Positions 11,180-42,555 of a DNA stretch of 64,000 nucleotides are shown here, piece by piece (the first letter of the stretch is position 1; every line of letters starts with the position of its first letter). The notes under the pieces were generated by a model. The model made no database searches and had not been told where the DNA came from. It saw only the letters and a program-made list of their open reading frames with translations. Origin of the DNA: Thermoanaerobaculia bacterium (lineage in GTDB: Bacteria; Acidobacteriota; Thermoanaerobaculia; Multivoradales; Multivoraceae); contig OZ220482.1 in the NCBI GenBank assembly GCA_965116145.1, forward strand, positions 1,916,143-1,980,142, in the 5' to 3' direction. The position numbers and the translations under genes are program-made.

Positions 11180-11346
11180 CCTGGAAACCTGCCGCGGATG
11201 TGCGTGTCGCGCCGGGAGCGGTCAGGCGACCGTCCGGCAAGGCGCGGCGAGAGAACGTGCGGGGACGATTGCGACCGAGGAGCCGTGCAGCCGGGCGGCA
11301 TGCAGGGGTGCTCGCATGCGACGCGACGTTCGCCGCGGACTGCCAG
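11180..11346 (+). repeat. MITE-like element copy (orientation A) between ftsK start and ksgA stop
   Basis: cctggaaacctgccgcggatgtgcgtgtcgcgccgggagcggtcaggcgaccgtccggcaaggcgcg...gcagccgggcggcatgcag...gacgttcgccgcggactgccag. Ends 7 bp from ftsK GTG. Confidence 0.7.
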
Positions 11347-11391
11347 ACCGGTCATGGCTGGAACATGCACGAGCATGTGATTGTAGCCCGC

Positions 11392-12192: not shown

Positions 12193-12239
12193 CGGATCGC
12201 ACGGTACCAGCGAGAACCGGGAAGAACACGCAAGGGCAT

Positions 12240-13097: not shown

Positions 13098-13108
13098 CGT
13101 CCCGGGGG

Positions 13109-15277: not shown

Positions 15278-15327
15278 CGCCGCGGAAAGGCCGGCCTGGA
15301 AGCCGGACCCCCGGCCCCCTCCCGGAC

Positions 15328-17314: not shown

Positions 17315-19783
17315 TCAGTGGGCGACGTTCGCGGGCGGCGCCTCGTCGACCGGCTTCTGGAACTCGGCCGCAACCTCGGGCGGCCGCTGCACGACGCCCT
17401 CGAAGACGATGTCGAGCACCTCGTCCATGGACTCGACGAGGTGGAACTTCATCTTGTCGCGGACCTCCTCGGGCACTTCCTCGAGGTCCTTCTCGTTCTC
17501 CTTCGGCAGGAGCGCCTCGAAAATCCCCGCACGATAGGCGGCAAGCACCTTGTCCTTGATGCCGCCGACGGGCAGCACCTTGCCGCGCAACGTGATCTCG
17601 CCGGTCATCGCCACGTCACCACGCACCGGCGCCCGCAGCAGGGAGGAGATCAGGGCCGCAGCCATCGTGATGCCGGCCGACGGTCCGTCCTTGGGGATGG
17701 CGCCTTCGGGAACGTGAATGTGGAGGTCACGGTCGGCATGGAAACCGGGTTCCAGGCCGAAGCCGTCGGCGCGGCTGCGCAAATAGGACATCGCGGCCCG
17801 AGCCGATTCCTTCATGACGTCACCCAGCTTGCCGGTGAGGATCAGCTTGCCGGAGCCCTTCATCAGACCGACTTCGCTCTGCAGCAGCTCGCCGCCGGCC
17901 TGGGTCCAGGCCAGCCCGGTGGCAACCCCGATCTCGGGCTGCTCGAGCTTCTTCCAGGGCCGGAACTTCGGCTTGCCCAGGAGGTCCCCGACCAGCTCGC
18001 GGTCGACCGCGATCGCGGGCGGCCGCTCCGTGTCCCTGGCCCTGCCCCTGGCCTTCGCCGCGGCCTTGAGCTTCTGCGTGCGGCCCTCTTCGACCAGACG
18101 GCGGGCCAGCTTGCGGCAGACGGCCGCGATCTCGCGCTCCAGGCTGCGCACGCCCGCCTCCCGGGTGTAGGAGTCCATCAGGTAGCCGAGACTGTCCTCG
18201 CCGAAGCGCACGGCCTCTTCCGTGAGACCGTGGCTGTCGAGCTGTCTCGGCACCAGGAACTGGCGCGCGATCTCGAGCTTTTCGTTCGGCGTGTAGCCGG
18301 CGAGCTGGATGACCTCCAGGCGATCGCGAAGCGCCGGAGGAATCGGGTGCTCGACGTTCGCTGTAGCGATGAACAGGACCTTGGACAGGTCGTACTCGAC
18401 GTCCAGGTAGTGATCGACGAAGGCATCGTTCTGCTCCGGGTCGAGCACCTCGAGCAGCGCGGACGACGGGTCGCCGCGAAAGTCCGTCGACATCTTGTCG
18501 ACTTCGTCGAGCAGGAAGACCGGGTTCACCGTGCCTGCCCGTTTCATCATCTGGACGATCTGTCCGGGAAACGCACCGATGTAGGTCCGGCGATGGCCGC
18601 GGATCTCCGCCTCGTCGCGCACGCCGCCAAGTGACAGGCGCACGAACTTGCGGCCGGTAGCGGCCGCGATCGACCTTGCCAGCGACGACTTGCCAACCCC
18701 TGGAGGTCCGACAAAGCAGATGATCGAGTTCTGGTTCTTGTGGGTGAGCTGGCGCACGGCCAGGAACTCGAGCACCCGCTCCTTGACCTTCTCCAGACCG
18801 AAGTGCCCCTCGTTCAGGATCCGCGCCGCCTTGTTCAGGTCCTTCAGCTCGCGGCTGCGCTTCTTCCACGGCACGGACATCAGCCAGTCGACGTAGTTCC
18901 GCGACACGGTGGCTTCGGCCGACACCGGCGGCATCGCCTCCAGCCGCCGCAGTTCCTGCGCCGCCTTCTCGCGCACCGGCTTCGGGGCGCCCGACTTCTC
19001 GATCTTCTGCTTCAACTCGGCGATCTCGTCGCCGCGATCGTCCTTGCGTCCCAGCTCGTGGTGAATCGCCTTGATCTTCTCGTTGAGGTAGTACTCCTTC
19101 TGAGCCTTCTCCATCTGTTTCTTGACCTGCACGTTGATCCGCTTGTCGATGTTGATCTTCTCGACCTCGACATCGAGCAGGTCGTGCACGGCCTGCAGAC
19201 GCTCGTAGGGATTCAGCGTCTCCAGCAGGGTCTGCTTCTCGGCCGTGGAGACGGTCAGATGGGCGGCCAGCGCGTCGGCGAAGCGGTCGGGGTCGTCGAG
19301 CTTCAGGGTCGACATCAGGCTCTCGAAGGCCAGGTGATGGGACATCTTCGCGTACTGCTCGAAGCTGTTCAGCAGCCGGCTCATGTAGACCTGCACCTTG
19401 TCGTCCGCCGGGTAGTGGATCTCGTAGACCTCCACGTCCGCCTCGAAGGCCTCGTCCACTTCCTCGAGCGTCTTCAGCTCGGCCCGCCGCAGCCCCTCGA
19501 CCATCACCTTCACGTTGCCGTTCGGCAGCTTGACGTTCTGCACCACCCGAGCGACGACGCCGATCCGGTGGATGTCGTCGATTCCCGGGTCGTCGACCTT
19601 CGGATCGCACTGGGCGACCAGGAAGATCTGCTTGCCGGCGGTGCGCAGGGTCCGCTCCAGCGCCAGCACGGAGCCGCGGCGGCCGACGATGAAGGGCGCC
19701 ATCATCTGCGGGAAGACCACCATGTCCCGCAGGGGCACGACCGGCAGCCGGTCGCTTGAAGTCGATACGTGTCCCGAGGCCAT
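17315..19783 (-). CDS. lon: ATP-dependent Lon protease
   Basis: LON N-domain ([13 protein letters not shown]), AAA+ [16 protein letters not shown]16 protease domain with [18 protein letters not shown] 19783, 822 aa. Confidence 0.95.
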
Positions 19784-19785
19784 CC

Positions 19786-21015
19786 CTATCCCGCTTTCTC
19801 GTAGACCGTCAGCGGCTGAATACCGTTCAACACCACATCCTCGTTGATCACGCACTCCTTGATGCCGGGCTCGGAGGGGAGGCCGTACATCAGTTCGAGC
19901 ATGAGTTCTTCGAGGATGATCCTGAGCCCACGGGCGCCCACGTTGCGCTTCATCGCCTGCCGGGCGACCGCCCGCGCGGCTTCGGCCGTGAAGGTGAGCT
20001 TGACGTCCTCGAACTTGAACATCTCCTCGTACTGGCGCACCAGGGAGTTCTTCGGCTCGGTCAGGATGCGGACCAGGGCGTCCTCGTCAAGCCGCTCCAG
20101 GACGGCCACCACCGGCAGACGCCCGACGAACTCGGGAATGAGGCCGTACTTGATCAGGTCCCCCGGCAGGACATGCCGGAGCATCTCGCCGGCCCGTCCG
20201 GCGCGATTCCGGATCTCGGCGCCGAAGCCCATCGCCTTCTCGTTCATCCGCCCTTCGATGCGCTCCTCGAGACCGACGAAGGCGCCGCCGCAGATGAAGA
20301 GGATGTTCGTCGTGTCGATCTGCAGGAACTCCTGGTGGGGGTGCTTTCGCCCGCCCTGGGGCGGCACATTGCAGCACGTGCCCTCGAGGATCTTGAGCAG
20401 GGCCTGCTGGACGCCCTCGCCCGACACGTCCCTGGTGATCGACGGGTTGTCGCCCTTGCGGCAGATCTTGTCCACCTCGTCGATGTAGACGATGCCGCGC
20501 TGCGTCTTCTCCTTGTCGCTGCCGGACGCCTGGTAGAGCTTGAGGATGATGTTCTCGACATCCTCGCCCACGTAGCCCGCCTCGGTCAGGGTGGTCGCAT
20601 CCGCGATCGTGAACGGGACGCTCAGCAGCCGCGCCAGCGTCTGCGCCAGCAGTGTCTTGCCGGTGCCGGTCGGACCGATGAGCAGGATGTTCGACTTCTG
20701 AAGCTCGACGTCGGTCCTCGACCGCTCGCTGAAGTCGATCCGCTTGTAGTGGTTGTAGACCGCGACCGCGAGCTTCTTCTTGGCCTGCTCCTGGCCGATC
20801 ACGTAGTCGTCGAGGAGGCTCTTGAGTTCCTGGGGCTTGGGCAGGGCCGCATCCTGACGCTGCTCCATCCGGTCCTCGGCGATGATGTCGAGGCAGATAT
20901 CGACGCACTCGTCGCAGATGAAGACGGTCGGGCCGGCGATGAGCTTCTTGACGTCGCGCTGGCTCTTGCTGCAGAACGAGCACTTCAGCGTGTCGTCGCT
21001 GTCCTTCTTGGCCAC
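19786..21015 (-). CDS. clpX: ATP-dependent Clp protease ATP-binding subunit ClpX
   Basis: Zn-finger CSFCSKSQ...CDEC, Walker [12 protein letters not shown]-like loop, sensor motifs. GTG start. Confidence 0.95.
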
Positions 21016-21184
21016 GGTTCGTCGTTCCGGCTTCAGCTATCGGCGTCTGTTCGGACGGTTGCGGGAGCATAACGGGCCGCCCGCGCCGCAGGATGGTAAC
21101 ACGGAGCGGCAGCCGGAGGGTTCCGCCGAAGCTCCGTAGGGCGGGAGCCGGCGCCCCGCCTTGCCTGGAGCCCGCGGCCGCCGG

Positions 21185-21775
21185 CTAACCGGGTCCGCGG
21201 CGCTCGACCACCCGGTCCGCCAGGCCGTACTCGACCGCCATCTCCGCCGTCAGGATCTTGTCCCGTTCCGTATCGGCGTGAACCTCCTCGGTCGACTTCC
21301 CCGTGTGCAGCGCCAGCAGTTCGTCGATCCGCCCGCGCATCCGCAGCAGGTCCCGGGCGTGGATGTCGATGTCCGACTGCTGGCCGCCCAGGTTCTGCAC
21401 CCAGGGCTGGTGAATGAGGACCCGGGCGTTCGGCAGCACCATCCTCTTGTCCTTCGCGCCTCCGGCAAGCAGAACCGCCGCGAACGACGCGGCCTGGCCG
21501 ACGCAGAGGGTCGACACGTCCGGCTTCACGTGCTGCATCGTGTCGTAGATCGCGAAGCCGGCGGTGACCGAGCCTCCTGGAGAATTGATGTACAGCGAGA
21601 TGTCCTTCTCCGGATTCTCGGACTCCAGGAAGAGCATCTGGGCGATGACCAGGTTCGCCACGTCGTCGTCGATCGGCCTGCCGATGAAGACGATGTTGTC
21701 CTTGAGCAGCCGCGAGTAGATGTCGTAGGCCCGTTCGCCGCGGTTGGTCTGCTCGACCACCATCGGTACCAGCAT
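21185..21775 (-). CDS. clpP: ATP-dependent Clp protease proteolytic subunit ClpP
   Basis: [32 protein letters not shown]...[11 protein letters not shown]...HQP. ATG 21775 with GGAGAGGA RBS. Confidence 0.95.
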
Positions 21776-21779
21776 CGCT

Positions 21780-23141
21780 CTAGTCCTCTCCTTCCCCGGC
21801 ATGCGCACCTGCCGCAGTTGCCGGTTCTCCGGGAAGCGGGTTGGCGGCCAGCATGGCCTCCATCGCCAGATTTCGAGTCAGATCGGCCTTCAACGTCTCC
21901 AGACCGTCCTTCTGCTCCAACTCCCGCCGCAGCCTGCCGCGATTCGTGTTGCGCGCACGCGCCATGACGTCAAGAGCCTCTTGCAGATCCTCCGCAGACG
22001 CCTCGACGCCGTCCTTGCGGGCGATCCGGTCCAGCAGGAACGAGGCGTGCACTCGCTCCTTCGCCCGCGGCCGCAGGCTCTCCATCACCTGCTCCCAGGG
22101 CACCTGCTGCTTCTCGAAGTCGAACCCCTGGCGAGCGAGCTCGTTCGCGTAGGACCTGGCCATGTCGACCGCTTCGCGCTCCACGGCCGCCTCCGGCAGG
22201 GCCACCGGGTAGCGTTTCCTCAACTGGTCGAGTACCGCCTCGACACGCTCCTTCCTGGCCTGCTCGCCCAGCTGCGCCCGTGCCTGATCGGCGAGCCGCC
22301 GCCGCAGATCGCCGACGGTCTCGAACGCCGACGACAGACTGCTTGCCCATTCATCGTCCACATCAGGCAGCTTGCGCTCGAGAACCTCCTCGACCTCGAC
22401 CTCATAGCTGCGCTGCCGCTCGATGTCGCCGTCCGTTTCCGCGTGGTCGAAGGTCGCCTTCTGTCCCGCCGACACGCCTGCCAGGACATCCGTCAGCTCG
22501 GGCCAGGCCCCCTCGTTGCCGAGCTCGAAGTCGATCTGCCGGGTCGCCGGACCGCGGTCGTCGTTGTCCGGGTCGCGATCGTTGGTATCCGCGGCCGCCT
22601 GCGGAACGTATCCCGGGATCGCGGAGCGGTGCATCCGGCCCCTTATCCTGTCGCCGCGCGCTGCCGGCCGCTCGACCGGTGTCCAGGTCGCATGCTGGCG
22701 CTGCACCTGTTCGAGAAGTCCGTCGACTTCGGCCTCGTCGGGCTCCAGCCTGGGTTCGGGCAAGTCGAAGGTCCGGTTGTCGTCGATCTCCACCTCGGGC
22801 TCGACATCCGCGGTCACCGTCAGCCGCAACGGCTGGCCCGGGACGGCCTGGGCCGGCTCCACGGTCGGCGGCAGCATGGCGCGCACACCCTCTTCCTCGG
22901 CTGCCTTCCGCCAGTACTTCGGGGCCAGACGCTCCGCCACGTCCCCGGCGATCAACCCGGCGAACTGCTTCCGCACCAGATCGAGCGGCGCCTTCCCCTT
23001 GCGGAAGCCGTCGATACGCACCCGCCGACGGTAGTCCCGAGCGACCCGCACGTACTCGGCGTCCACGTCGACGACGGGCACTTCGATCTCGAACTCGTGC
23101 CGGCAGACGCCGACCTCCCGCCTGGAAACCACCAATGTCAT
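21780..23141 (-). CDS. tig: trigger factor
   Basis: N-terminal ribosome-binding motif GFRKGKAP, central FKBP-like PPIase region, C-terminal helical arm. 453 aa. Confidence 0.9.
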
Positions 23142-31863: not shown

Positions 31864-32891
31864 CCGGCAGGCCCCCGCTCGCAACTTCGAGCTTCGACTA
31901 CGACCTGCCGCCGGCAGCGATCGCTCAGCACCCCGGCAGACGTGGAGAGAGCCGCCTTCTTGTGCTCGGTCCGGCAAGCGAGGAACGCCGCTTCGCGGAC
32001 CTGCCCGACCTGCTCGATTCCGGCGACCTGCTGATCGTCAACGACACCCGGGTCATTCCGGCCCGGCTGCGGGCGCGGCGGCGCACCGGCGGCCGGGTGG
32101 AGGTTCTTCTCGTCGAGCGGGAGGGCGCCGCTTCTTGGTGGTGCCTGCTCCGCCCGGGCCGGCGCATGACCACCGGTACTCAGCTCGCGATCGACGGCGG
32201 TCCGGCAGCGCAGGTCGAAGAACGCGCGGACGGCCGCTTCCTGCTGGCCTTCGAGCAGCCGGTAGAACCCCTGCTCGACGCGATCGGCGAGACTCCCCTG
32301 CCGCCCTACATCGAGCGGCCGGCCGCGCCGCAGGACCGGGAGCGCTATCAGACGATCTACGCCGCGCAGCCGGGCGCGGTCGCGGCGCCCACCGCCGGCC
32401 TCCACTTCACTCCCGCGATCCTGGAGGCGCTCGAACGGCGCGGGGTCCGGCAGGCGAGTCTGACGCTCCATGTCGGTCCGGGCACCTTCCGACCGGTCAG
32501 GACGGAGAATCCGGCAGCGCACGTCATGGACACCGAGCTGTTTGCTGTTCCGGACGCCACGGCGGCAGCGATCGCCGCCGCGCGGCAGGGCGGCGGCCGC
32601 ATCGTGGCCGTCGGCACGACCGTGGTCCGCGCTCTCGAGACCGCCGCGGCCGACGCCGGACAGGTTGCCGCGGGCGCCGGACGCACCGCGCTCTACATCC
32701 GCCCCGGCTTCGAGTTCCGGGTCGTCGACCGCCTGATCACGAACTTCCACCTGCCCCGATCCACCCTGCTCATGCTGGTCTGCGCGTTCGCCGGACGCCG
32801 CCGCATCCTCGACGCCTACCGTGAGGCGATACGGAGCGGATTCCGCTTCTGTTCCTACGGCGACGCGATGCTGGTCGACAGGATGCGGTGA
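31860..32891 (+). CDS. queA: S-adenosylmethionine:tRNA ribosyltransferase-isomerase
   Basis: FDYDLPPAAIAQHP, LLIVNDTRVIPARL, ETPLPPYIERP, GLHFTPAILEAL, GTTVVRALE. ATG 31860 overlaps the permease stop (ATGA). Confidence 0.9.
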   Translation: MTGRPPLATSSFDYDLPPAAIAQHPGRRGESRLLVLGPASEERRFADLPDLLDSGDLLIVNDTRVIPARLRARRRTGGRVEVLLVEREGAASWWCLLRPGRRMTTGTQLAIDGGPAAQVEERADGRFLLAFEQPVEPLLDAIGETPLPPYIERPAAPQDRERYQTIYAAQPGAVAAPTAGLHFTPAILEALERRGVRQASLTLHVGPGTFRPVRTENPAAHVMDTELFAVPDATAAAIAAARQGGGRIVAVGTTVVRALETAAADAGQVAAGAGRTALYIRPGFEFRVVDRLITNFHLPRSTLLMLVCAFAGRRRILDAYREAIRSGFRFCSYGDAMLVDRMR

Positions 32892-33613
32892 GCCAGCGCC
32901 GCCGCGCCGAACCCGCTGTCGATGTTGACAACGGCGACGCCGGGAGCACAGGCCGTGAGCATGGTCAACAACGGTGCGATCCCCTCGAAGCTCGCGCCAT
33001 AGCCGACGCTCGTCGGCACCGCCACGACCGGACAGGGCACGAGACCGGCGACCACGGTCGGAAGGGCGCCGTCCATGCCCGCCGCGACGACGGCCACATC
33101 GGCACGGCGAACCGAGTCGATCGAATCGAGAAGACGCCCGAGTCCGGCAACACCGACATCGCGAATTCGCTCGACCTCGTGCCCCAGCCACTCGACACAG
33201 ACGGCGGCCTCCTCCGCGGGTCGGGCATCGGCCGTGCCGGCGCTCAGCACCGCCACCCTGCGTCCGGACGGCGGCCCGAACCGCCCCGCGCTCCAGACCC
33301 TCGCACGCGGCTCGAAGCGGCCGTGAGGAAGGGCGGCGTTCAGCAATTCCGCGGCGGCCGCCTCCACCCGGGTGACCAGCACCCGGCCCGATGCTCCCGC
33401 CATCGCCTCGACGATCCGAACCAGCTCTTCGTCGCTCTTGCCCTGACCGAAGACGACCTCGGGAAGACCGGTCCGAAGCTCCCGCTGCAGATCGAGCCTG
33501 GCGGCGCCCAGATCGAGGCAGGGCCGCCGGGCGACCTGTTCGTGCGCCTCCTCGGGCGAGACGTCGCCGGCGGCCACTCGCTGAAGCAGTTCGAGGAGCT
33601 GTTGCGGCTTCAT
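32855..33613 (-). CDS. larB: nickel-pincer cofactor biosynthesis protein LarB (PurE-like carboxylase/hydrolase)
   Basis: MKPQQLLELLQRVAAGDVSPEEA...LDLGAARLDLQRELRTGLPEVVFGQGKS N-terminus. PurE-like core VLSAGTADARPAEEA...VVAAGMDGALPTVVAGLVPCPVVAVPTSVGYG. 252 aa from ATG 33613. Confidence 0.65.
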   Translation of the reverse strand: MKPQQLLELLQRVAAGDVSPEEAHEQVARRPCLDLGAARLDLQRELRTGLPEVVFGQGKSDEELVRIVEAMAGASGRVLVTRVEAAAAELLNAALPHGRFEPRARVWSAGRFGPPSGRRVAVLSAGTADARPAEEAAVCVEWLGHEVERIRDVGVAGLGRLLDSIDSVRRADVAVVAAGMDGALPTVVAGLVPCPVVAVPTSVGYGASFEGIAPLLTMLTACAPGVAVVNIDSGFGAAALAHRILSTSIASP

Positions 33614-33636
33614 CGCAATGGCCGGTGACAGCGCCC

Positions 33637-34422
33637 TCAGGCCGCGTCGGCGCCGCCGGCCCGATAGCCGCGCGGATCGAGCGCCGCCTGCTCGAAGCCG
33701 AGCTCGACCAGGCGCTCTTCGATCCCGCGCCACTGCCGCTCGGCTGCAGGCAGCTCGCCCTCACCCACTTCGACGCGGGCCGAACCGCGGTCGTGGCGCA
33801 CCCTGAGCACACGGAAGCCTCGGCGCCGAAGTTCATCCTCGGCGGCCTCGATCCGGCGAAGCCGGGGGAGGGTGACGAGCTGGCCGTGCGGTATCCGCGA
33901 GGACAGGCAGGCGTTCGCCGGCCGGTCCCAGACCGTGAGGCCCAGTGCCCGCGCCAGGCGGCGGACGGCCGCCTTGGTCACGCCATGCTCCAGCAGCGGG
34001 CTGTAGACGCCTCGCTCGCGCACCGCCCGCAGGCCGGGGCGGTCCGGTCCCGGATCCGAGGCGTTCGTACCGTCGCAGACCGTGCGGAAACCCTCGCGCC
34101 TCGCCATCTCCAGCATGCGGTCCATGCGCAACCCCTGGCACACGTAGCATCGGTGCCTCGGGTTGGCCCGGAACTCCGGCTCGTCGAGCTCGCTATAGGT
34201 CAGAACCTCGTGGCGGATGCCGATCTCGGCCGCCAGCCGGCGCGCATGGTTCAGCTCCGACCCGGCAAGGGTCTCGGCCGCCGCCGTCACCGCGACCGCC
34301 CGGTCACCGAGAGCGCGCTGCGCCAACGCTGCGACCAGCCCCGAATCGACGCCTCCGGAGAAGGCAACCAGCACCGGGCCGCGGCGGCAGAGGTCCGCCT
34401 CCAGCGGTTCGAGCAGCAGCAT
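33637..34422 (-). CDS. larE: ATP-dependent sulfur transferase LarE (PP-loop ATPase)
   Basis: PP-loop VLVAFSGGVDSGLVAALA; CYVCQ; WDRPANACLSSRIPHG; RVRHDRGSARVEV; LDPRGYRAGG. Matches the COG1606/LarE family as recalled. ATG overlaps upstream stop (TGATG). Confidence 0.65.
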   Translation of the reverse strand: MLLLEPLEADLCRRGPVLVAFSGGVDSGLVAALAQRALGDRAVAVTAAAETLAGSELNHARRLAAEIGIRHEVLTYSELDEPEFRANPRHRCYVCQGLRMDRMLEMARREGFRTVCDGTNASDPGPDRPGLRAVRERGVYSPLLEHGVTKAAVRRLARALGLTVWDRPANACLSSRIPHGQLVTLPRLRRIEAAEDELRRRGFRVLRVRHDRGSARVEVGEGELPAAERQWRGIEERLVELGFEQAALDPRGYRAGGADAA

Positions 34423-34898
34423 CAGTCCCGGCCTGCGCCCAGGCCGAGCTTGCGGCGCGGAACGGCGGCGCCCCGCAGCAGAACAGGCACCGCGAACAGG
34501 ACGGCGTAGACGCCAAGGGTCAGGATCGGCACCAGCGGCATCGCCTCGACCTGTTCCCGGCGCGCCATGGACCGAACCAGGTAGAGCCAGCCCGGCGGTC
34601 CGAACAGATAGAGCACGAACAGAAGCCGGGTACGGGCCACCTGCAGAATGACGTCGTCCAGGCGGCGGCGGCCGGCGTGACGAACCGGACCCCTGCGCTG
34701 AACGTAGACGTTGCCGAAGAACCAGCCGGTGAACGCGGCCAGGATGTAGAGAGGATAGAGCGCCAGCTCGAAGGTCAGGTTCCAGCGCAGGACGCCGATC
34801 TGGGCAAGGATGCCGACCGACCACGCCGCCAGGCTGGACGAAAGGACGATCGTCTCCAGCAGTCCGTGGCGAACGTCGCGCTGCAATCGTTTCGGCAT
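34422..34898 (-). CDS. small polytopic membrane protein of unknown function (co-operonic with larE/larB)
   Basis: 158 aa, four predicted TM segments (LETIVLSSSLAAWSVGILAQIGV, LALYPLYILAAFTGWFF, LLFVLYLFGPPGWLYLV, PLVPILTLGVYAVLFAVPVLL). ATG is the second ATG of the MITE-terminal ATGCATG. Confidence 0.45.
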   Translation of the reverse strand: MPKRLQRDVRHGLLETIVLSSSLAAWSVGILAQIGVLRWNLTFELALYPLYILAAFTGWFFGNVYVQRRGPVRHAGRRRLDDVILQVARTRLLFVLYLFGPPGWLYLVRSMARREQVEAMPLVPILTLGVYAVLFAVPVLLRGAAVPRRKLGLGAGRD

Positions 34899-35022
34899 GC
34901 ATCCCGTCCGGCTTCGTTGACCTTCGGTCAGAGCCGGCCCGGTATTCTCACCCACGGCGCCGTGCCGGAGGGGCGCCCGTCCGTTGTCCGCGCGGCACGG
35001 ACGTTCACAACGGACTGCCAGG
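34894..35022 (-). repeat. MITE-like element copy (orientation B) between the membrane-protein gene start and gcvH stop
   Basis: ggcatgcatcccgtccggcttcgttgaccttc...ggaggggcgcccgtccgttgtccgcgcggcacggacgttcacaacggactgccagg. Confidence 0.7.
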
Positions 35023-35046
35023 TCTGCCCGGCGGCTCAGCGCCCGA

Positions 35047-35424
35047 TCAACCCGCCAACTGCGCCTCGTACTCTGCGGCGGACATCAGCGCCTCCAGCGG
35101 CTCATCTGCGCCGAGTCGCAGCTTCACCAGCCAGCCTTCTCCCCAGGGATCCTCGTTCACCCGCTCCGGAGCGTCCTCGAGGCCGTCGTTCACCGCCGCG
35201 ACGGCGCCGGCGACGGGGGTGTAGATCTCCGCCACCGCCTTGACCGACTCGATCGCGCCGATCTCGGATCCGGCGGCAAACTCCTCCCCCGCTGCCGGCA
35301 GTTCGACGAACACGACGTCGCCTAGTTCCTGCTGGGCGAAGTCCGTGATGCCAAGCACGGCCTCACCGTCCTCGACCCTGAGCCACTCGTGCTGCGCCGT
35401 GTACAGACGGTCGTCGGGAATCAT
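35047..35424 (-). CDS. gcvH: glycine cleavage system H protein
   Basis: YTAQHEWLRVEDGEAVLGITDFAQQELGDVVFVELP...ESVKAVAEIYTPVAG (lipoyl-lysine context SVKA), 125 aa. Confidence 0.9.
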   Translation of the reverse strand: MIPDDRLYTAQHEWLRVEDGEAVLGITDFAQQELGDVVFVELPAAGEEFAAGSEIGAIESVKAVAEIYTPVAGAVAAVNDGLEDAPERVNEDPWGEGWLVKLRLGADEPLEALMSAAEYEAQLAG

Positions 35425-35448
35425 CGAAACCTCATGTTGCCTCAGACG

Positions 35449-35614
35449 CTAGCAGCCCGTGGCAGAAGTGCGCGCCGCACCGAGAGCGGTCAGGCGCCCG
35501 TCCGGCAAGGCGCGATGAACGAGCATATTGAGGTATATGTGAGAGAAGAGCAACGCAGCCGGACGGGATGCATGGCCGATCGAATGCAGCGCTACTTCTG
35601 CCACGGGCTGCGAG
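35449..35614 (+). repeat. MITE-like element copy (full length, orientation A) overlapping the 3' end of gcvT
   Basis: ctagcagcccgtggcagaagtgcgcgccgcaccgagagcggtcaggcgcccgtccggcaaggcgcg...gaagagcaacgcagccggacgggatgcatggcc...ctacttctgccacgggctgcgag. Its terminal repeat encodes the last 7 aa and the TAG stop of gcvT. Confidence 0.8.
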
Positions 35615-36722
35615 CCTTCGGACGCCGGTAGAAGGGGAGTCTGACGATACGGCAATCGAGCCGTCTGCCGCGAACCTCGACCGAGGCTGCGCTGCCCGGC
35701 GCCGGCGGCTCGCCGTCCGGGCAGACCACGCGGGCGATGCCGACCGCCCGGCCCAGGGTGGGCGCGAAGGCGCCGCTGGTCACCGGCCCGGCGCATCCGG
35801 GAGCGTCCCGGACGGTCAGACGGTGGCCGTGACGGGCGATGCCGCGGCCTGCGACCTCGAAGCCGACCAGCCGCTGACGGCAGCCGTCCTCTCGCTGACG
35901 GACCAGGGCGTCCCGACCGACGAAGCCGCCCTTCCGCCACTTGACGATCCAGGACAGCCCGGCCTCGATCGGCGTCGTCTCCTCGTCGATGTCCTGGCCG
36001 CACAGCAGCATCCCGGCCTCCAGCCGAAGCGTGTCGCGGGCGCCCAGTCCCGCCGGCTGAAGACCCCGGCCCTGGCCCCGCTCCAGGAACTCGACCCACA
36101 GGTCCTCCGCCTGCTCCGTCGGCGCATAGACCTCGAAGCCGTCCTCGCCGGTGTAGCCGGTCCGCGACACCACACGGCGCGCTGCCGCCTGATGAAGGAA
36201 CGAGTAGTAGCGGAGGCCCACCGCCTCGGCGCCCACCACGTCCGCCACGACCTCCGGCGCCCGCGGCCCCTGCACGGCGATCAGGGCAGTCGCGTCGCTC
36301 TGATCGTCGACCCGGATGTCCTCACCTTCCGCCGCCGCTGCAGCCTGCAGGAGCTTCAGATCACGCTCTCTCGAAGCGGCGTTCACCACCAGAAGGTAGT
36401 ACTCCGGGTCGAAGCAGTAGACGAGCAGGTCGTCGATGAACGTCCCCCGCTCGGTCAGGAGGGCGCTGTACTGCGCGCGAAACGGCTGGAGAGCCGCCAC
36501 ATCGTTCGGCGTCAGCCGCTGGAGCAGCGGCAGGGCCCCCGGACCGCGCACCCGAATCTCGCCCATGTGAGACACGTCGAACATCCCTGCGCGCTCCCGC
36601 ACCGCACGGTGCTCCGCCAGCACGCCCTCGTACTGGATCGGCATCTCGTAGCCGGCAAAGGGCCCCAACCGGGCGCCCGCCTCGACATGGCGCCCATGGA
36701 GCACCGTCCGCTTCAACGTCAT
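35592..36722 (-). CDS. gcvT: glycine cleavage system aminomethyltransferase T
   Basis: MTLKRTVLHGRHVEAGARLGPFAGYEMPIQY, GMFDVSHMGEI, RTGYTGEDGFE. ATG 36722. C-terminus (ARSPWQK*) is specified by the MITE copy. Confidence 0.9.
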   Translation of the reverse strand: MTLKRTVLHGRHVEAGARLGPFAGYEMPIQYEGVLAEHRAVRERAGMFDVSHMGEIRVRGPGALPLLQRLTPNDVAALQPFRAQYSALLTERGTFIDDLLVYCFDPEYYLLVVNAASRERDLKLLQAAAAAEGEDIRVDDQSDATALIAVQGPRAPEVVADVVGAEAVGLRYYSFLHQAAARRVVSRTGYTGEDGFEVYAPTEQAEDLWVEFLERGQGRGLQPAGLGARDTLRLEAGMLLCGQDIDEETTPIEAGLSWIVKWRKGGFVGRDALVRQREDGCRQRLVGFEVAGRGIARHGHRLTVRDAPGCAGPVTSGAFAPTLGRAVGIARVVCPDGEPPAPGSAASVEVRGRRLDCRIVRLPFYRRPKARSPWQK

Positions 36723-36924
36723 CACCACCTCAGGAGCAGGCATCAGCTCGGAAGAAGCCCTGCCAGCGCCGACAGAACTCGTGGCTGCGCCCACCTTCCA
36801 CGACGGATTCTATACGCTACAGCCCCATCTCCGCGACAGCGGAACAGCCGTCACCGTGGGGCACCCAGACCAAACCGGAACAGCGAACGCGGCACCCGCA
36901 GCGCTGACGTAGAGAAAGCCCAAT

Positions 36925-36953
36925 TTGACACGCAAATCTCCCTGTGCTAGAAA
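36925..36953 (+). promoter_or_regulatory. putative sigma-70 promoter (TTGACA-N17-TAGAAA) for the M23 peptidase islet
   Basis: Consensus -35 hexamer TTGACA at 36925..36930 and TAGAAA at 36948..36953, in an AT-richer stretch about 30 bp upstream of TAGGAGAG-N6-ATG(36985). Confidence 0.4.
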
Positions 36954-36984
36954 CCCTAATTCTCACAATAGGAGAGCCCCCACA

Positions 36985-37764
36985 ATGAGGAATAACAGCT
37001 GGTTTCGGGGCGCGCTGCCGAGCGCGCTGTTCTTCGGATTGGTGACTGGAGGCCCTGCCCTTGGCCAGCAGCTTGACCCCGGCAAGCTGTACACGGACGG
37101 GAACACGAGCTGCGACTCGAACAGCAACTGCGCGTCCAACAGCAACAAAGTGAACGTGACGCCGAACTACGGAGGTACGCCCGGCGCCGGTAATCCGACC
37201 GCCCCAGGCAGTGGCAGCGGGTATGAAGGCACGGGCATGGGAGGCGGCACCTACGTAAGCCAAGAAGAGGTGAACAAGACCTTGACGGCAGTGACCGACT
37301 GGGAGATCGTCGACACCGAGGATCGCTGTGGCAAGAACTTCGATTTCAACGATCGGCTGGGCAGCGATCACGGCGGTCCGAACACGCAGCGACCGCACCA
37401 CGCGGGGGTTGACATCCAAGGAGACCCAGGTGACGCCATCTACGCTTGGAAGGGAGGGTATCTCGCTTTCCGTACCAAATGGGACGGTCTACCTTACGAC
37501 ACTACCAATACTGCGTGCGGACACGGTGTCACAATTAACCACATAGACGGCAGCAAGACATGGTACTGTCATCTGGCTGCACTTCCCAGGACGAGCGGCT
37601 GGATCAGCGCTGGCGACGTGGTTGGCCGCGTGGGATCCACTGGCAAGTCGTGGGGTCCCCACGTCCATGTCGGCCACACGGACACTGATGGTAACCACGC
37701 TGAGTACTTCGACTACACGTCCGATCGGCCTGAGGACAGCGAGCTGAATCCTGATGGCTGTTGA
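36985..37764 (+). CDS. secreted M23-family (LytM/lysostaphin-like) metallopeptidase
   Basis: Signal peptide MRNNSWFRGALPSALFFGLVTGGPALGQQ. Gly/Ser/Asn-rich linker. M23 catalytic motifs HHAGVD (HxxxD) and HVHVGH (HxH). Strong RBS TAGGAGAG. GC visibly lower than flanks. Confidence 0.8.
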   Translation: MRNNSWFRGALPSALFFGLVTGGPALGQQLDPGKLYTDGNTSCDSNSNCASNSNKVNVTPNYGGTPGAGNPTAPGSGSGYEGTGMGGGTYVSQEEVNKTLTAVTDWEIVDTEDRCGKNFDFNDRLGSDHGGPNTQRPHHAGVDIQGDPGDAIYAWKGGYLAFRTKWDGLPYDTTNTACGHGVTINHIDGSKTWYCHLAALPRTSGWISAGDVVGRVGSTGKSWGPHVHVGHTDTDGNHAEYFDYTSDRPEDSELNPDGC

Positions 37765-39022
37765 CGTGAATCCTTTCGCAATCCTGCGGGGCATGGCGTT
37801 CTGCGGGCTGTCTCTGGCAGCGGCAACCGCCGCGACGGCTCGACCTGCGGAGTCGATACCTGTTCCCGGCGTAGAAGAGCCCGATGGACCGAGCGGGTTC
37901 GTCGGGAACGACGGACAGGTAGTCCTTCTGGCGAAGAACGACTCCGGTCAAGTGCACCTCCTGATCTGGAAGGGAACCGGTGTGCGCAGGCTCGATCTGC
38001 CTGGAGCACTCGACGGTCTTCTGCATGGAACAGAGCCTCTGTCGGACGACCGATTCGTTCTCCGTAGCGTGCCGGACGATGGTTCCAGTCACGGCGGGCC
38101 GGTCTCCACTCAAATCTACCGCCTTACCGGGACAGGCAAGGCAAGGCTGCTCTGGACGGCAAGCGAGGCGGACTACGCACGCTCTCGCATTCGGATCTCG
38201 GGCGACGGCAAGGTCTGGGGCGTCATGGCACCCAGTCGTGCTGCGAAGAAGACGAACGACGGCCGCAGAATCCGGTCGAAGTCCCGCAACGTGGTGTCAG
38301 GAATCCACTTCGCGTTCGGCAACTTCAAGTCCCCGAAGATTCGTCGGAAGTATGCCGTGATGTTTCATGATTGGGTCGACGATCGCGACATTGAAGGGAC
38401 CGGCCAAGCCACGAACTTCATTTTTCTGGATTCCGATGGTCCCGTTCTCGTGGCTCCCTATGCGGACTATATGTACCTTCTGCGCTTCGGGGACTCCGGG
38501 GTCACCTCGCAGCAGATTGAACCGATGAAGCCGCTGATGAAGGCGGTAGCGGGTGTGGTCTGGTTGGAATGGCAGGATGAGGATCGGGTTCTCTGGTCGG
38601 GCGGCACCGGAGAGTGGTTGGCCTGGAACCTGTGGGATCTCGGCCTGTCCGGCTTTCCCGAAGAGCCTTTTCTGAGTTTCTCGGACAGCTACTCGGGAAG
38701 ACCGCATCGCATGCGAGGGTTCGTCAGGACGATCCGCGATGGAGACCGCTACCGCGTCGAGCATCTCTGGCAGAACCCCCAGAGCCCGAACTGGAAGGAG
38801 CGTCGCATCTCCGACTGGCAGCAGGGAACGCCCATCGGATTTCCGGACGTCAGTCCCGACGGTCGTCATGTCCTGGTGTTCGAGCAGCGACTGCCGGACG
38901 AGGACACGAGCGGTCAGCCGATTGTGGAGGGCGAGCAGGAAGCGGAGAGGCTGCCTCGCTACTACGCAACGCGCTTCGAGCTGTTCCCGGCGCCGGTCGA
39001 GCCGCCCGAACCGGCGCCGTGA
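37754..39022 (+). CDS. secreted hypothetical protein (beta-propeller/TolB-like features)
   Basis: Signal-like N-terminus MAFCGLSLAAATAATARPAE. Repeated SPDG/DG motifs (DVSPDGRHVLVFEQ) reminiscent of TolB-type propeller blades. Overlaps the M23 gene by 11 nt. Lower GC. Start uncertain (ATG 37754 or 37793). Confidence 0.55.
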   Translation: MAVDVNPFAILRGMAFCGLSLAAATAATARPAESIPVPGVEEPDGPSGFVGNDGQVVLLAKNDSGQVHLLIWKGTGVRRLDLPGALDGLLHGTEPLSDDRFVLRSVPDDGSSHGGPVSTQIYRLTGTGKARLLWTASEADYARSRIRISGDGKVWGVMAPSRAAKKTNDGRRIRSKSRNVVSGIHFAFGNFKSPKIRRKYAVMFHDWVDDRDIEGTGQATNFIFLDSDGPVLVAPYADYMYLLRFGDSGVTSQQIEPMKPLMKAVAGVVWLEWQDEDRVLWSGGTGEWLAWNLWDLGLSGFPEEPFLSFSDSYSGRPHRMRGFVRTIRDGDRYRVEHLWQNPQSPNWKERRISDWQQGTPIGFPDVSPDGRHVLVFEQRLPDEDTSGQPIVEGEQEAERLPRYYATRFELFPAPVEPPEPAP

Positions 39023-39101
39023 CCTCAGCGGCATCGGCGACCGGGCGCTTCCGTCAAGCTGCCGGCCCCCGGAGAGCCCGGGCCGTGCCTGGCGCCGTGG
39101 A

Positions 39102-40409
39102 TCACCGGTCCGCCGAAGCCGGGCCCGGGAGGCCCACCGTGACGAACATCCGGTCCGGGTCCAGGTGTCGGCGCGCCGCCTGGAAGACGCCGTCGGGGCA
39201 GAGCCGTTCGATCCGTTCCAGCCGCCAGGAACGTCGATAGCTCGGCAGGTCGAAGAGCAGCGCGTCCACGAGCTGTCCGGTCCACAGGCCGGCGGTCTCG
39301 GTCAGGAACGCCTCGCGGCCGAACATGCCGGTCCGGCACGCCTCGAGGACGGCGGCTTCGGGCGGGCGCTCCAGCACCTCGAGCAGCGCATCGCGCACCA
39401 GCTCGAGGGCGCGCTCGACGTGGTCCGGGTGAGTGCCGAGATAGACCGAGAGCGCACCAGGATCGGCGCCGGCGCCGGCCAGCAGGTCGACGTGGGCGGC
39501 GTACGCGAGCCCCTCCTGTTCGCGAATGCGGTTGGGAATCAGCCCGGCCAGACCGTCCGACCCGAGCAGGATGCCGAGGGCGCGCAGCTCCGGCAGGTCG
39601 GGATGCCTCCGATCGACGGTGAAGTGACCGGTGTACACGTGCGCCTGCTCGCGCGAACCGGCGGCGACCTCGATCCGCCGTTCAGACCGACCTTGCGGCC
39701 TGGGCGGTTCGGCGCGGAGGACTCCACCGGCGGCCGCTTCCGGCGCGGCGCCGCCGCCGAACAGTCGGTCCAGGTCCGAGAGCACCGCCTCTTCGTCGAT
39801 GTCGCCGGTCACGGCGACCACACCGCCGCGCGCCACGGCCTGCTCGTGGAATTGCCGGCAGTCGCGGGGCGTCAACCGCGCCAGCGATTCGGCTGTCCCC
39901 TGGCTCGGCGACGCCAGCGGGTGCGGGTGGTAGAGCTGATCGCGGAAGGTCCAGCCGGTGACGACGTCAGGTCGGTCCGCCAGACTTCGGAGTTCGCCCA
40001 GGGTCTGGTCGCGCAGGAGTTCGAAGCGTGCCCGATCGAAGGCGGGTTCGAGCAGCAGTTCGGCCAGCCAACCGAGCGCAAGCCCGGCATCGTCGGCCAG
40101 CGCATTGATCGTCAGGCCATGGACCTCGGCGGTTGCCAGCCCGCTCAGCGAGACGCCGCGCGCCTCGGCCTGCTCGGCGATCTCGCTCCAGGTTCGCCGG
40201 GAGCTGCCCTCGACCAGCATGCGGCCGCACAGCAAGGACAGCCCGGGCAGCGGCTCGCGCCGGCCGCCGCCGCGCAGCCAGGCCTGCGCCGCAACCACGC
40301 CGGAGTCCGGCACGCGAAGCGCGGCAAGCCGGAGTCGGCCCGACCAGAGGTCGAGCCGCAGCGGCTCGCGCCCACGGGAGAGGGACACCCCGGCACCACT
40401 CGCGGTCAC
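39102..40409 (-). CDS. M16-family peptidase, non-catalytic-type subunit
   Basis: Insulinase fold (paired with upstream M16 gene) but no HxxEH motif. 435 aa. GTG start overlapping the upstream stop (GTGA). Confidence 0.7.
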   Translation of the reverse strand: MTASGAGVSLSRGREPLRLDLWSGRLRLAALRVPDSGVVAAQAWLRGGGRREPLPGLSLLCGRMLVEGSSRRTWSEIAEQAEARGVSLSGLATAEVHGLTINALADDAGLALGWLAELLLEPAFDRARFELLRDQTLGELRSLADRPDVVTGWTFRDQLYHPHPLASPSQGTAESLARLTPRDCRQFHEQAVARGGVVAVTGDIDEEAVLSDLDRLFGGGAAPEAAAGGVLRAEPPRPQGRSERRIEVAAGSREQAHVYTGHFTVDRRHPDLPELRALGILLGSDGLAGLIPNRIREQEGLAYAAHVDLLAGAGADPGALSVYLGTHPDHVERALELVRDALLEVLERPPEAAVLEACRTGMFGREAFLTETAGLWTGQLVDALLFDLPSYRRSWRLERIERLCPDGVFQAARRHLDPDRMFVTVGLPGPASADR

Positions 40410-41698
40410 GGCGCGTCGACCGGCAGCGACCAGCCGACAACCCGGGTCGCCGGGGCCAGCCAGTCCGCGCAGGCGGCGCGGACGTCGGCGGCGGTGGCGC
40501 GGGCGAGCACCTCGTACGAGTCACGACTGAAGCCGGGAAAGAAGAGAGCGTGCTCGATGGCGGCCGAGATCGCCCGTTCTGCGACTCGCTCGTGCAGGAA
40601 CACCCAGTCGGCGAACAGCACGCGCTTCGCCCGATCGAGTTCCGCCGCGGACGGCGGGCTCGCGGCAAGCTGGTCGATCCGTGCGCACACCTCGGCTTCC
40701 AGGCGAGCAGGCTCGACCCCGATCGCCGTTTCCGCCGCCAGGGTCGACATGCCGCCGAGCCGGTGACCGCTGGACGCGCCGGCGGCCCACAGCGCCAGCG
40801 GCTCCAGTTCGACCAGGTCGTGCTGGATGCGGCTCGCACGGCCGCTGGCAAGGACGGTCAGAGCAAGACGGACATGGACGTGGAGCGGGTCATCGGCGGC
40901 CGGCGCCGGATGCGCAACCAGGAGCCGTGCCGTATCGCCCCGGCGCAGCTCGACCCGGCAGGCAGACCCGCGAGCGAAGACGGGCGGCCCGGCGCGGTCG
41001 CTGCAGGCGGACGGCCGCGGGACGCAGGCGTCCTCGGAAACGCCGTTGCCGAGGATCGCCTCGATCCGATCCGCCGCATCCGGCGGCAGACCTCCGGCGG
41101 CGGCAAGAACTGCCCGGTCGGGGCGATAGTGGCGGCGGTGAAACGAACCGAGGGACGCACCGTTCAGCCGGCGCAGGCTCTCCCTGGTCCCGAGCACGGG
41201 GCGGCCATACGGATGGCCGCCGAAGACGCGCTCTGCCACTGCCTGCCCCAGAACGTCCCAGGGATCGTCCTCGACCATCCGGATCTCCTCGACGATGACC
41301 TCGCGCTCGCTCTCGACCTCTTCCGGCAGCAGGCTCAGGCTCCGCATCCGATCCGCCTCGATCCTCAGCGCCTCCTCCCAGAAGCTGCAGGCGAACCGGA
41401 AGTGGTAAGCAGTGACGTCGTGCGAGGTGAACGCGTTGTTCGTGCCGCCGAAGCCCTGGGTCACGCGGTCGATCGCTCCCGGCGGATAGCGCGTCGAGCC
41501 CTTGAACATCATGTGCTCCAGGAAGTGCGCGAGCCCCGCCTCGTCCGGGACCTCGTCCCGGCTGCCGGCCCGGTAGCACAGGACGGTCACGATCGACTCG
41601 GCGTCCGCCTGCGGCAGCAACACGACCGTCAGACCGTTATCCAGGACCTGCGCCTCGGCGGTCACCCGGTCGAACACGCTCAGATCGATCGTCGTCAC
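40406..41698 (-). CDS. M16-family zinc peptidase (HxxEH inverzincin motif)
   Basis: GLAHFLEHMMFKGS (HxxEH) ... EREVIVEEI. GTG 41698 overlaps the phosphoesterase stop (GTGA). Track N-terminal 62 aa trimmed. Confidence 0.8.
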   Translation of the reverse strand: MTTIDLSVFDRVTAEAQVLDNGLTVVLLPQADAESIVTVLCYRAGSRDEVPDEAGLAHFLEHMMFKGSTRYPPGAIDRVTQGFGGTNNAFTSHDVTAYHFRFACSFWEEALRIEADRMRSLSLLPEEVESEREVIVEEIRMVEDDPWDVLGQAVAERVFGGHPYGRPVLGTRESLRRLNGASLGSFHRRHYRPDRAVLAAAGGLPPDAADRIEAILGNGVSEDACVPRPSACSDRAGPPVFARGSACRVELRRGDTARLLVAHPAPAADDPLHVHVRLALTVLASGRASRIQHDLVELEPLALWAAGASSGHRLGGMSTLAAETAIGVEPARLEAEVCARIDQLAASPPSAAELDRAKRVLFADWVFLHERVAERAISAAIEHALFFPGFSRDSYEVLARATAADVRAACADWLAPATRVVGWSLPVDAP

Positions 41699-42555
41699 GC
41701 CAGCTCGCAGTCGTGGACCGCTCCGACCTCGAAGCGGCCGCGGCCCTCGGACCAGACCAGTTGCTCCACCCGGGCGTTTCGGTCCCCGGGTCCCGCCGCC
41801 AGGGTGATCCAGTTGCAGCTCCGGCTGCCCTGCTCCACTCCCCGGCCCCGTCTCGACGTGGACGTTCCACTGTGGACCAGCCATGGCCGCCGGGGGCCCT
41901 CAGGCGCCCGGCCCAGGGCGGCGACATGGACATGCCCCGACAGGACCAGATCGACATCGGCCGCGGCGAACGCGGCCAGCGCCTCGCCGCTGCGTCGGGC
42001 CACGGGCCAGCCCATGAGTTCGGGCAGGGCCGCCAGCGGGTGGTGGGCGACCGCGACGCGCACCGGACGCAGCGGCGCCGGCGGCGACGGATCTCCAGTC
42101 GACAGATCGGGCGCCGGTTGCGCGGCGCCAGGCCTGCGGGATCCGAACCGCTCGCGGATGCGGGCCAACTGCCTGGCGGTGAAGCGGCCCCGGTCGATCG
42201 TCAGGTGGAAGGCCGTGTTGAAACCGACGACCTCCATCTCGTCGTCCGCGAAGGCCGGTTCGAGATCGGCGCTGAAGTGACGGCGGTACGCACCGTAACT
42301 GTCGGCCAGCCGTTCCCAGAACCGGTACATGGGAACGTCGTGATTGCCCGGCACGGCAAGATACGGGCATCCCAGACCGTCGAGAAACCGGCGCGCCTGC
42401 CGGAACTGCGCCACCCGGGCGCGCTGGGTCAGGTCGCCCGAGACGACGACGAGGTCGGGCCGCTTCTCGGCAACCAGCGCCTCGACGCCCGCAGCCGCCG
42501 ACCGGTCGTGCGGCGGCCCGAAGTGGATATCGGAGATGTGGAGCAGGCGGCGCAG
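41695..42555 (-). CDS. calcineurin-like metallophosphoesterase (start codon unresolved; possible CTG start or frameshift)
   Basis: In-frame sequence upstream of track start 42414 continues without stop: SLRRLLHISDIHFGPPHDRSAAAGVEALVAEKRPDLVVVSGDLTQRARVAQFRQ...GNHD. These are the conserved phosphoesterase motifs I and II. No ATG/GTG/TTG in frame; a CTG at 42555 gives MRRLLHISDIHFG with GGGGA 9 nt upstream. Confidence 0.55.
   Translation of the reverse strand: MRRLLHISDIHFGPPHDRSAAAGVEALVAEKRPDLVVVSGDLTQRARVAQFRQARRFLDGLGCPYLAVPGNHDVPMYRFWERLADSYGAYRRHFSADLEPAFADDEMEVVGFNTAFHLTIDRGRFTARQLARIRERFGSRRPGAAQPAPDLSTGDPSPPAPLRPVRVAVAHHPLAALPELMGWPVARRSGEALAAFAAADVDLVLSGHVHVAALGRAPEGPRRPWLVHSGTSTSRRGRGVEQGSRSCNWITLAAGPGDRNARVEQLVWSEGRGRFEVGAVHDCELA

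Follow-up and report, generated by a model that had tools for sequence, protein, structure and literature searches.

A lower-GC islet in the genome of an uncultured Thermoanaerobaculia bacterium probably encodes a toxin–immunity cassette, in which a secreted M23 wall-cutting enzyme would be paired with a secreted beta-propeller protein that neutralises it. The islet lies in a 64,000-nucleotide stretch of contig OZ220482.1 (positions 1,916,143 to 1,980,142; hereafter the window), between gcvT and a pair of M16 peptidase genes, a setting that had been proposed in an initial annotation and that Pfam identification of the flanking genes bore out. It contains two overlapping genes, the first for the M23 peptidase and the second for the propeller protein, hereafter the partner (Table 1). 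The annotation had described the two as a horizontally acquired lytic enzyme with an immunity or targeting protein. Our evidence on both counts comes largely from relatives, all of which are metagenome-assembled genomes; their loci are named here by labels such as L004.

The first gene encodes a protein with a single recognisable domain. Pfam PF01551 matched residues 138–231 (E = 1.3e-14; score 54.6 bits, gathering threshold 28.7), and the zinc and catalytic residues of M23 peptidases are all present (H139-x3-D143, H196 and H226-x-H228). These residues align with those of the solved M23 domain 3slu and are invariant across six aligned toxin–partner pairs, as are cysteines 115, 178, 195 and 259, the last being the C-terminal residue. 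Relatives of the domain in the PDB comprise 3slu, zoocin A, TagE, LytM and lysostaphin, and the nearest solved relatives include NMB0315-type M23 proteins of Neisseria. Together with the signal peptide, which like the others reported here was assigned by inspection of translations, these features support the view that the window M23 protein is a secreted, catalytically intact peptidase, as its HxxxD and HxH motifs had initially been taken to indicate. The leader pattern MRxxxxRGALxSALF...PAxxQ is also present in relatives. Close relatives of this M23 protein number only seven, which makes them as rare as members of the partner family described below. A Pfam search of the window protein returned M23 only and no domain of type 5, 6 or 7 secretion (T5/T6/T7), PAAR, Rhs, LXG or similar trafficking domain.

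The partner belongs to a previously undescribed family. Its structural model is a beta-propeller of about seven blades and about 28 beta-strands (predicted local distance difference test score (pLDDT) 80), and a signal peptide occupies amino acids (aa) 1–29. It matched no Pfam family at E ≤ 0.01, PD40 and TolB included, and no NCBIfam family at E ≤ 1, in agreement with its first description as a secreted protein of no assignable family. The same description had given it TolB-like blades with SPDG motifs; the propeller model and one SPDG strand-start motif, accompanied by one SGDG, are consistent with this, but the expected PD40/TolB profile match is missing. The partner resembles TolB/PD40 propellers in its predicted periplasmic location, modelled fold and SPDG/SGDG motifs, and differs from them in lacking the profile match, the TolB N-terminal domain and a tol-pal gene context. 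The family is very small: an index of 5.8 billion proteins yielded 22 members, and an exhaustive hidden Markov model search against 1.84 billion representatives yielded 54 clusters. Every named source belongs to Thermoanaerobaculia or Candidatus Multivoraceae-type Acidobacteriota, and the homologues come from one acidobacterial clade, except for one doubtful fragment at 31% identity. Within the partner, a loop/strand segment spanning residues 288–323 (WxLWDLGLSGFPEEPF...GxPHxxRGF) is invariant; as a matter of speculation, this segment is a candidate inhibitory element that might be inserted into the M23 active-site groove. In the open-access literature we found nothing specific on an M23/beta-propeller immunity pair.

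The association of the two genes in relatives is asymmetric. We surveyed 16 loci that together contain 23 partner copies. All complete M23 catalytic domains of the subfamily (9/9) have a partner gene immediately after them, and the stop and start codons usually overlap; in the window, L005, L003, L010, L012, L013 and L020, the start of the partner gene either overlaps the M23 stop or adjoins it. The converse does not hold, as 14 of the 23 partner copies stand behind a decayed M23 gene (six) or none (eight). Among the six decayed cases, L003 has two C-terminal remnants, L004 a 122-aa stump that lacks HxxxD, L007 a frameshifted gene, and L008 an 83-aa remnant and a copy with the catalytic core deleted; the eight partners without M23 include a tandem partner-only pair in L006. 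Where the initial annotation had left the role of the partner as immunity or targeting, this asymmetry points to immunity and speaks against targeting, so that comparative evidence gives good support to a role as candidate immunity protein. One apparent exception to separate genes, P0015 (666 aa), was considered as an M23–partner fusion and rejected: its N-terminal half is an arginine-rich nonsense translation of a frameshifted M23 gene, and the partner retains a signal peptide of its own.

Analysis of relatives also revealed that the M23 domain is one of several interchangeable C-terminal tips. In L013, M23 forms the C terminus of a long protein (≥1105 aa) with three NBR1-type immunoglobulin (Ig) domains; a signal peptide is encoded in an upstream frame, and a partner gene comes next. 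The same locus contains an orphan M23 tip (15014–15463) that is leaderless and start-less, begins inside the Gly-rich linker and is followed by a partner of its own. In P0029, a leader 64% identical over 75 aa to that of the window M23 protein is joined to an unrelated Cys-rich C terminus, and the next gene encodes a 150-aa signal-peptide protein. Similarly, a 182-aa protein of L004 (8521–9069) has a leader 44% identical over 82 aa to that of the L005 M23 protein but a different C terminus, and is followed by a 324-aa secreted protein (8985–9959); further along, a truncated 124-aa copy of the 182-aa protein (11279–11653) precedes a 288-aa paralogue of the 324-aa protein that is intact (11655–12521). 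None of these L004 second-cassette proteins has a Pfam match. A second collecting site lies directly downstream of a conserved aminotransferase-like gene (L006 9914–12661, L008 9732–13410 and L009 9848–11158), where one or two copies of a distant partner subfamily (~38% identity) occur and M23 is mostly decayed or absent. The relatives therefore combine one N-terminal region with alternative C-terminal domains, keep the downstream cognate gene after decay of the toxin gene and contain start-less orphan tips. A constant N terminus, swappable tips, a downstream candidate immunity gene, and orphan tips and immunity genes are, judged from gene order and domain content, the architecture of polymorphic toxins. 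Separately, L013 encodes a 434-aa signal-peptide protein between two partner genes of its array (11533–12837), which may be another immunity-type gene.

These features suggest the following mode of action. The M23 protein would be exported by Sec as a disordered Gly/Ser/Asn-rich leader carrying a C-terminal M23 zinc endopeptidase, and the M23 domain, given its family membership and intact zinc and catalytic residues, would cut the peptide cross-links in the peptidoglycan of competitors. The partner, which the 11-nucleotide (nt) gene overlap would couple translationally to the enzyme, would likewise be exported by Sec, stay in the periplasm, and bind and block the M23 domain. It would thereby guard the producer's wall during transit of the enzyme and against the same toxin from neighbours, and cells keeping only the immunity gene would also be protected. 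Retention of the propeller where M23 is lost or degraded can be explained in this way, because selection for protection from the toxin of other cells predicts it. The same leader, or a long Ig-repeat N-terminal region, would be combined with alternative C-terminal domains, each with its own secreted partner, and the cassettes would duplicate, decay and accumulate at a few chromosomal junctions, gcvT–M16 among them. Toxicity, peptidoglycan cleavage, direct inhibition and the route from producer to target are elements that we infer. More tentatively, the scheme may extend across uncultured Thermoanaerobaculia (Candidatus Multivoraceae with its relatives, several of them known from metagenomes of marine invertebrates), which might deploy Sec-launched polymorphic toxins without a dedicated secretion apparatus. 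In such a system, a leader or Ig stalk would bear interchangeable periplasm-acting tips (M23 and at least two unknown domains), the propeller would be an M23-specific immunity protein, possibly acting through the 288–323 loop in the active-site groove, and the gcvT–M16 junction and the aminotransferase 3' end would be collecting sites for orphan immunity genes.

Occupancy of the gcvT–M16 junction varies among relatives. A pair-type cassette is present in three genomes (the window, L004 and L005) and the site is empty in five (L016, L017, L021, L022 and L023). L005/L001 carries an M23–partner pair and one extra 199-aa gene, and L004 carries a truncated M23 gene, two partner copies and the second cassette type; the L004 islet (OZ244782, 6400–13250) measures about 6.9 kb. 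Flanking proteins of L004 and L005 are 67–82% identical to those of the window, whereas between genomes with flanks this similar the M23 proteins are 47–64% and the partners 42–62% identical; for L004 and L005 compared with the window, the M23 figure is 47–61%. M23 and partner divergence are correlated (r = 0.86, mirror-tree). All five empty-site genomes have the order M16a-M16b-gcvT-gcvH, with an M16b–gcvT gap of 8–105 bp in four and 676 bp in L023 (7378–8053), and no remnant of M23 or partner was detected in any of these gaps, tblastn having been used for that of L023. Relatives in which gcvT directly adjoins the M16 genes, as an inserted cassette would lead one to expect, thus exist. In the empty-site genomes gcvT follows M16b on the same strand, so that an insertion would have come between gcvT and the M16 genes. 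L018 has a rearranged junction, and its genome carries the module at another place, L003. Of the loci near empty junctions, L022, which belongs to the L008 genome, encodes a 728-aa protein a few kb away (804–2990) with weak He_PIG and NBR1-type Ig matches, the same repeat type as in the long M23-tipped protein of L013.

Trees of concatenated flanking proteins, built from gap-free columns for both flanks after over-long open reading frames in the window had biased an earlier tree, placed the empty-site genomes in one clade, with the window, L004 and L005 branching outside it and the window just outside; therefore, a single loss or one old gain suffices to explain the distribution. In the outgroup L024, gcvT is not next to M16. 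Import of the cassette by recombination, which could show as discordance between left-flank and right-flank trees, is not supported: both flank trees keep the empty-site clade, and the weak grouping of the window with L004 on the left flank (82% versus 79–80%) is too little to carry such a claim. The two flanks nevertheless differ in their affinities: across M16b, M16a and the metallophosphatase gene (39102–42414) the window is 81–83% identical to the empty-site clade versus 67–70% to L004 and L005, whereas the gcv-side genes (32855–36722) are about equidistant from all (78–82%), L004 being marginally closest. This difference at the islet could reflect rate variation or an old recombination breakpoint. 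No integrase was found around the islet, the only flanking repeats are short and of the kind expected by chance, and the nearest tRNA lies 4.3 kb away, beyond the M16 genes. The partner had no match in plasmids, phages or viral contigs and no PHROG match.

The composition of the islet sets it apart from its surroundings, as the initial annotation had stated. The GC content of positions 36840–39022 is 0.614, compared with 0.694 for the whole window, and is the lowest among all 2.2-kb windows, about 3.5 standard deviations under the mean. GC at third codon positions (GC3) is 0.725 for the two genes (681 codons) versus 0.843 for seven flanking genes (2104 codons), a difference with a chi-square p of 1e-11, so that both GC and codon statistics depart clearly from the flanks; no other plausible gene in the window has a GC3 as low as those of M23 and partner. 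Amino-acid composition also contributes a share of the dip, with Ala, Arg and Leu down, Lys, Asn, Ser, Thr and Asp up, and GC at first codon positions at 0.57–0.66 versus 0.76–0.80. Of the codons initially singled out as rare elsewhere, ATT is indeed enriched in the pair, as are TTT, GGA and ACT, but AAA, at 2 of 21 Lys codons, is not, and TTA does not occur in the pair at all. Another lower-GC stretch, encoding Lon, ClpX, ClpP and trigger factor (17315–23141; GC 0.61–0.64), retains a GC3 of 0.85–0.93, and its dip, unlike that of the islet, is due to amino-acid composition; therefore, depressed GC3 is specific to the islet. The signature is shared by relatives: every module copy in every genome examined has a GC content of 0.60–0.66 versus 0.70–0.73, and therefore composition does not date an acquisition.

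Other functions for the pair have to be weighed against toxin and immunity. The enzyme could act on the producer's own peptidoglycan during growth, septation or shape maintenance, with the propeller as its regulator or scaffold, as for other M23/LytM factors. Both proteins are predicted to be exported by Sec and would meet in the periplasm, their genes appear translationally coupled, their position by housekeeping genes is common to three lineages, and NCBIfam profiles detect a weak likeness of the M23 domain to the shape and division endopeptidases Pgp3, MepM, ShyA and DipM. Every one of these profile matches, however, is far under its curated cut-off, and housekeeping fits poorly with the absence of the pair from the same site in five related genomes, with a family of only ~22–54 members in billions of proteins and with multi-copy arrays in which decayed M23 genes lie beside intact partners. 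Nor would it account for the fusion of M23 to a large Ig-repeat protein, for its occurrence as a start-less orphan, for a leader common to unrelated C-terminal domains, or for cassette divergence much faster than that of the flanks, and we consider such a role unlikely. We give still less credence to the possibility that the propeller helps the enzyme as a chaperone, activator, substrate- or target-recognition subunit or outer-membrane export partner. Conserved adjacency and coupling would suit a helper, the size of the partner would suit a scaffold, and beta-propellers are commonly binding platforms, with lectins and peptidase gating domains among the structural matches of the partner. Yet a helper would be useless without its enzyme, and more than half of the surveyed partners, tandem partner-only pairs included, are intact behind a decayed M23 gene or none; moreover, each of the other C-terminal domains linked to the leader comes with a small, unrelated secreted partner of its own, a pattern typical of toxins and immunity proteins and not of a shared export factor. 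The preferred reading as toxin and immunity protein has its own difficulties. A Sec-exported M23 protein would have to leave a diderm producer and reach the periplasm of a diderm target, and the neighbourhood of the cassette showed no machinery dedicated to secretion or import. The window holds a single cassette without orphans, and therefore the evidence for polymorphic toxins comes entirely from relatives, in which some decayed M23 genes could be errors of metagenome assembly. The correlation between M23 and partner divergence is weak evidence; one close pair and common ancestry account for part of it. The length of the partner (422 aa) is large for an immunity protein. Its structural matches scatter evenly across unrelated WD40-type propellers at 5–14% identity, and the fold is generic and therefore says nothing specific about function. 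Finally, an AlphaFold model of M23 alone, built on a 7-sequence alignment, reached a pLDDT of 41 and was unusable.

A further alternative concerns origin, namely that the islet is a recently acquired foreign island, from a phage, a plasmid or a lower-GC donor, carrying a lytic enzyme, much as initially annotated. GC and GC3 under those of the flanks, the absence of the cassette from the same junction in five relatives and the resemblance of the M23 domain to those of phage endolysins and tape-measure proteins would all be expected of such an island. However, L004 and L005 carry the same cassette at the same junction, the genomes with an empty site all fall into one clade, and the lower GC is common to every copy in every genome. 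In addition, the partner family is confined to the acidobacterial clade and unmatched among plasmids, phages, viral contigs and PHROG families, and the hallmarks of mobility (integrase, flanking repeats, adjacent tRNA) are missing. A recent foreign origin is therefore very improbable, and the claim of horizontal acquisition was not upheld: the islet is a patchy, accessory, fast-diverging cassette native to one acidobacterial clade, with no recent import. Together, these data illustrate that a lower-GC, low-GC3 islet need not mark recent transfer; here, the signature travels with a fast-evolving accessory cassette, which has kept its site in lineages that share only ~80% identity in their flanking proteins.

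As a proposed toxin–immunity cassette, the pair shares features with several known systems. With CdiA-CT/CdiI and Rhs-CT/RhsI, it shares a constant N terminus with alternative toxin tips, an immunity gene directly downstream, arrays of start-less tips and extra immunity genes, fast divergence and patchy distribution. In contrast to those systems, recognised trafficking domains, among them those of contact-dependent inhibition (CDI), Rhs, PAAR and LXG, are absent here, the constant part is a Sec signal peptide and Gly-rich linker or, in L013, NBR1-type Ig repeats, the presumed target is the periplasm or cell wall and not the cytoplasm, and the window has one cassette without orphans. Type VI secretion system (T6SS) peptidoglycan-hydrolase effectors that are paired with periplasmic immunity proteins are exemplified by Tse1–Tsi1-type pairs. 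Pairs of this kind, including those with M23-type WHIX effectors (PMC12135965), likewise place a wall-degrading toxin gene next to one for a Sec-exported periplasmic protein, which in the T6SS pairs neutralises by binding. Here, however, the toxin candidate itself carries a Sec signal peptide, within ~10 kb there is neither a T6SS marker domain nor a T6SS gene, and the candidate for immunity is a propeller of ~420 aa from a new family. The M23 domain is an established antibacterial toxin module in zoocin A (PMC12352652) and a toxin domain in the WHIX effectors (PMC12135965). Like zoocin A/Zif and lysostaphin/Lif, whose M23 domains are among the nearest solved ones, the cassette combines a secreted M23 endopeptidase, there a weapon, with a linked gene for self-protection, here a proposed one. 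Those systems belong to monoderm producers (Gram-positive cocci) and have a cell-wall-targeting domain, for which there is no counterpart here. Their immunity is conferred by a cytoplasmic FemABX-type enzyme that alters the cross-bridge and not by a binding protein. Pesticin–Pim and colicin M–Cmi are wall-targeting, periplasm-acting bacteriocins with periplasmic immunity proteins, and they resemble the cassette in directing a toxin at peptidoglycan or its precursor in a diderm periplasm, in their exported immunity protein and in a disordered Gly-rich N-terminal region. Pesticin and colicin M have no signal peptides and possess defined receptor and translocation domains; they differ further in being a muramidase and a phosphatase and not M23 enzymes, and nothing in the cassette shows receptor-mediated import.

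Toxin–immunity cassettes themselves are known; what is new here is the propeller-type candidate immunity family and the Sec-only leader. If the proposed function is correct, it would give a role to an unannotated family (~54 clusters, no Pfam model) and make the partner the first propeller-type inhibitor proposed for M23 peptidases. It would also extend polymorphic toxin–immunity logic to an uncultured lineage of Acidobacteriota that relies on a Sec leader alone, and raise the question of how wall-degrading toxins cross two outer membranes. A specific protein inhibitor of lysostaphin-type enzymes would, in turn, be a useful reagent and structural template.

Table 1. Features of the islet and its flanking genes in the window (positions counted from its first nucleotide)
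Feature	Position	Strand	Remarks
gcvT (aminomethyltransferase), left flank	35592..36722	-	Pfam GCV_T and GCV_T_C
Promoter-like TTGACA-N17-TAGAAA	36925..36953	+	32 nt upstream of the M23 start codon; read directly
Shine-Dalgarno-like TAGGAGAG	36969..36976	+	AGGAG at 36970-36974, 10 nt before the M23 ATG
M23 gene	36985..37764	+	259 aa; stop codon 37762-37764
Sec-type signal peptide of M23 protein	36985..37065	+	aa 1-27; predicted cleavage ALG|QQ
Low-complexity Asn/Ser/Gly/Pro-rich leader-linker	37066..37284	+	aa 28 to ~100; common to proteins with other C-terminal domains
M23 peptidase, putative toxin module	37285..37764	+	aa ~101-259; PF01551
Partner gene	37754..39022	+	422 aa; secreted, modelled as ~7-bladed beta-propeller; proposed periplasmic immunity protein
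M16b (second gene of M16 peptidase pair), right flank	39102..40409	-	Pfam Peptidase_M16 and M16_C

The two genes overlap by 11 nt, with the partner ATG inside the end of the M23 gene (CTGATGGCTGTTGACG). Upstream, the longest open reading frame of gcvT starts at a GTG at 36794; its true start is probably the ATG at 36722 and the 36794 start over-extended, because homologues align only from residue 24–27 of the long frame. With the start at 36722, gcvT and the M23 gene are separated by a divergent intergenic region of 262 bp. On the other side, M16b is convergent with the partner gene at a stop-to-stop spacing of 79 bp. In L005 (11329–11928) and L004 (~12790–13245), a conserved gene for a signal-peptide protein of ~150–200 aa lies between the cassettes and M16b; the two proteins are 74% identical to each other and have no Pfam match, and the gene does not occur in the window, where only the 79 bp are found.

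The intergenic region contains plausible signals for expression of the pair. A near-consensus promoter had been annotated there, and the TTGACA-N17-TAGAAA element is indeed present with a perfect -35 hexamer; its relaxed form occurs once in the window and in 0 of 100 shuffles. The -10 hexamer, however, is weak (4/6 consensus, with the T missing at position 6), and a consensus scanner does not call the site for this reason. Nor is the site conserved in an upstream alignment of the window, L005 and L003. The Shine-Dalgarno-like sequence was confirmed. An Rfam scan between gcvT and M23 for a glycine riboswitch or other RNA returned only a chance SECIS_2 match (E = 0.67). In L003, an 18-nt tandem repeat present seven times (CCAATGACCGGGGGTCCT, in-frame PMTGGP) lies directly upstream of the M23 gene, at ~7040–7165.

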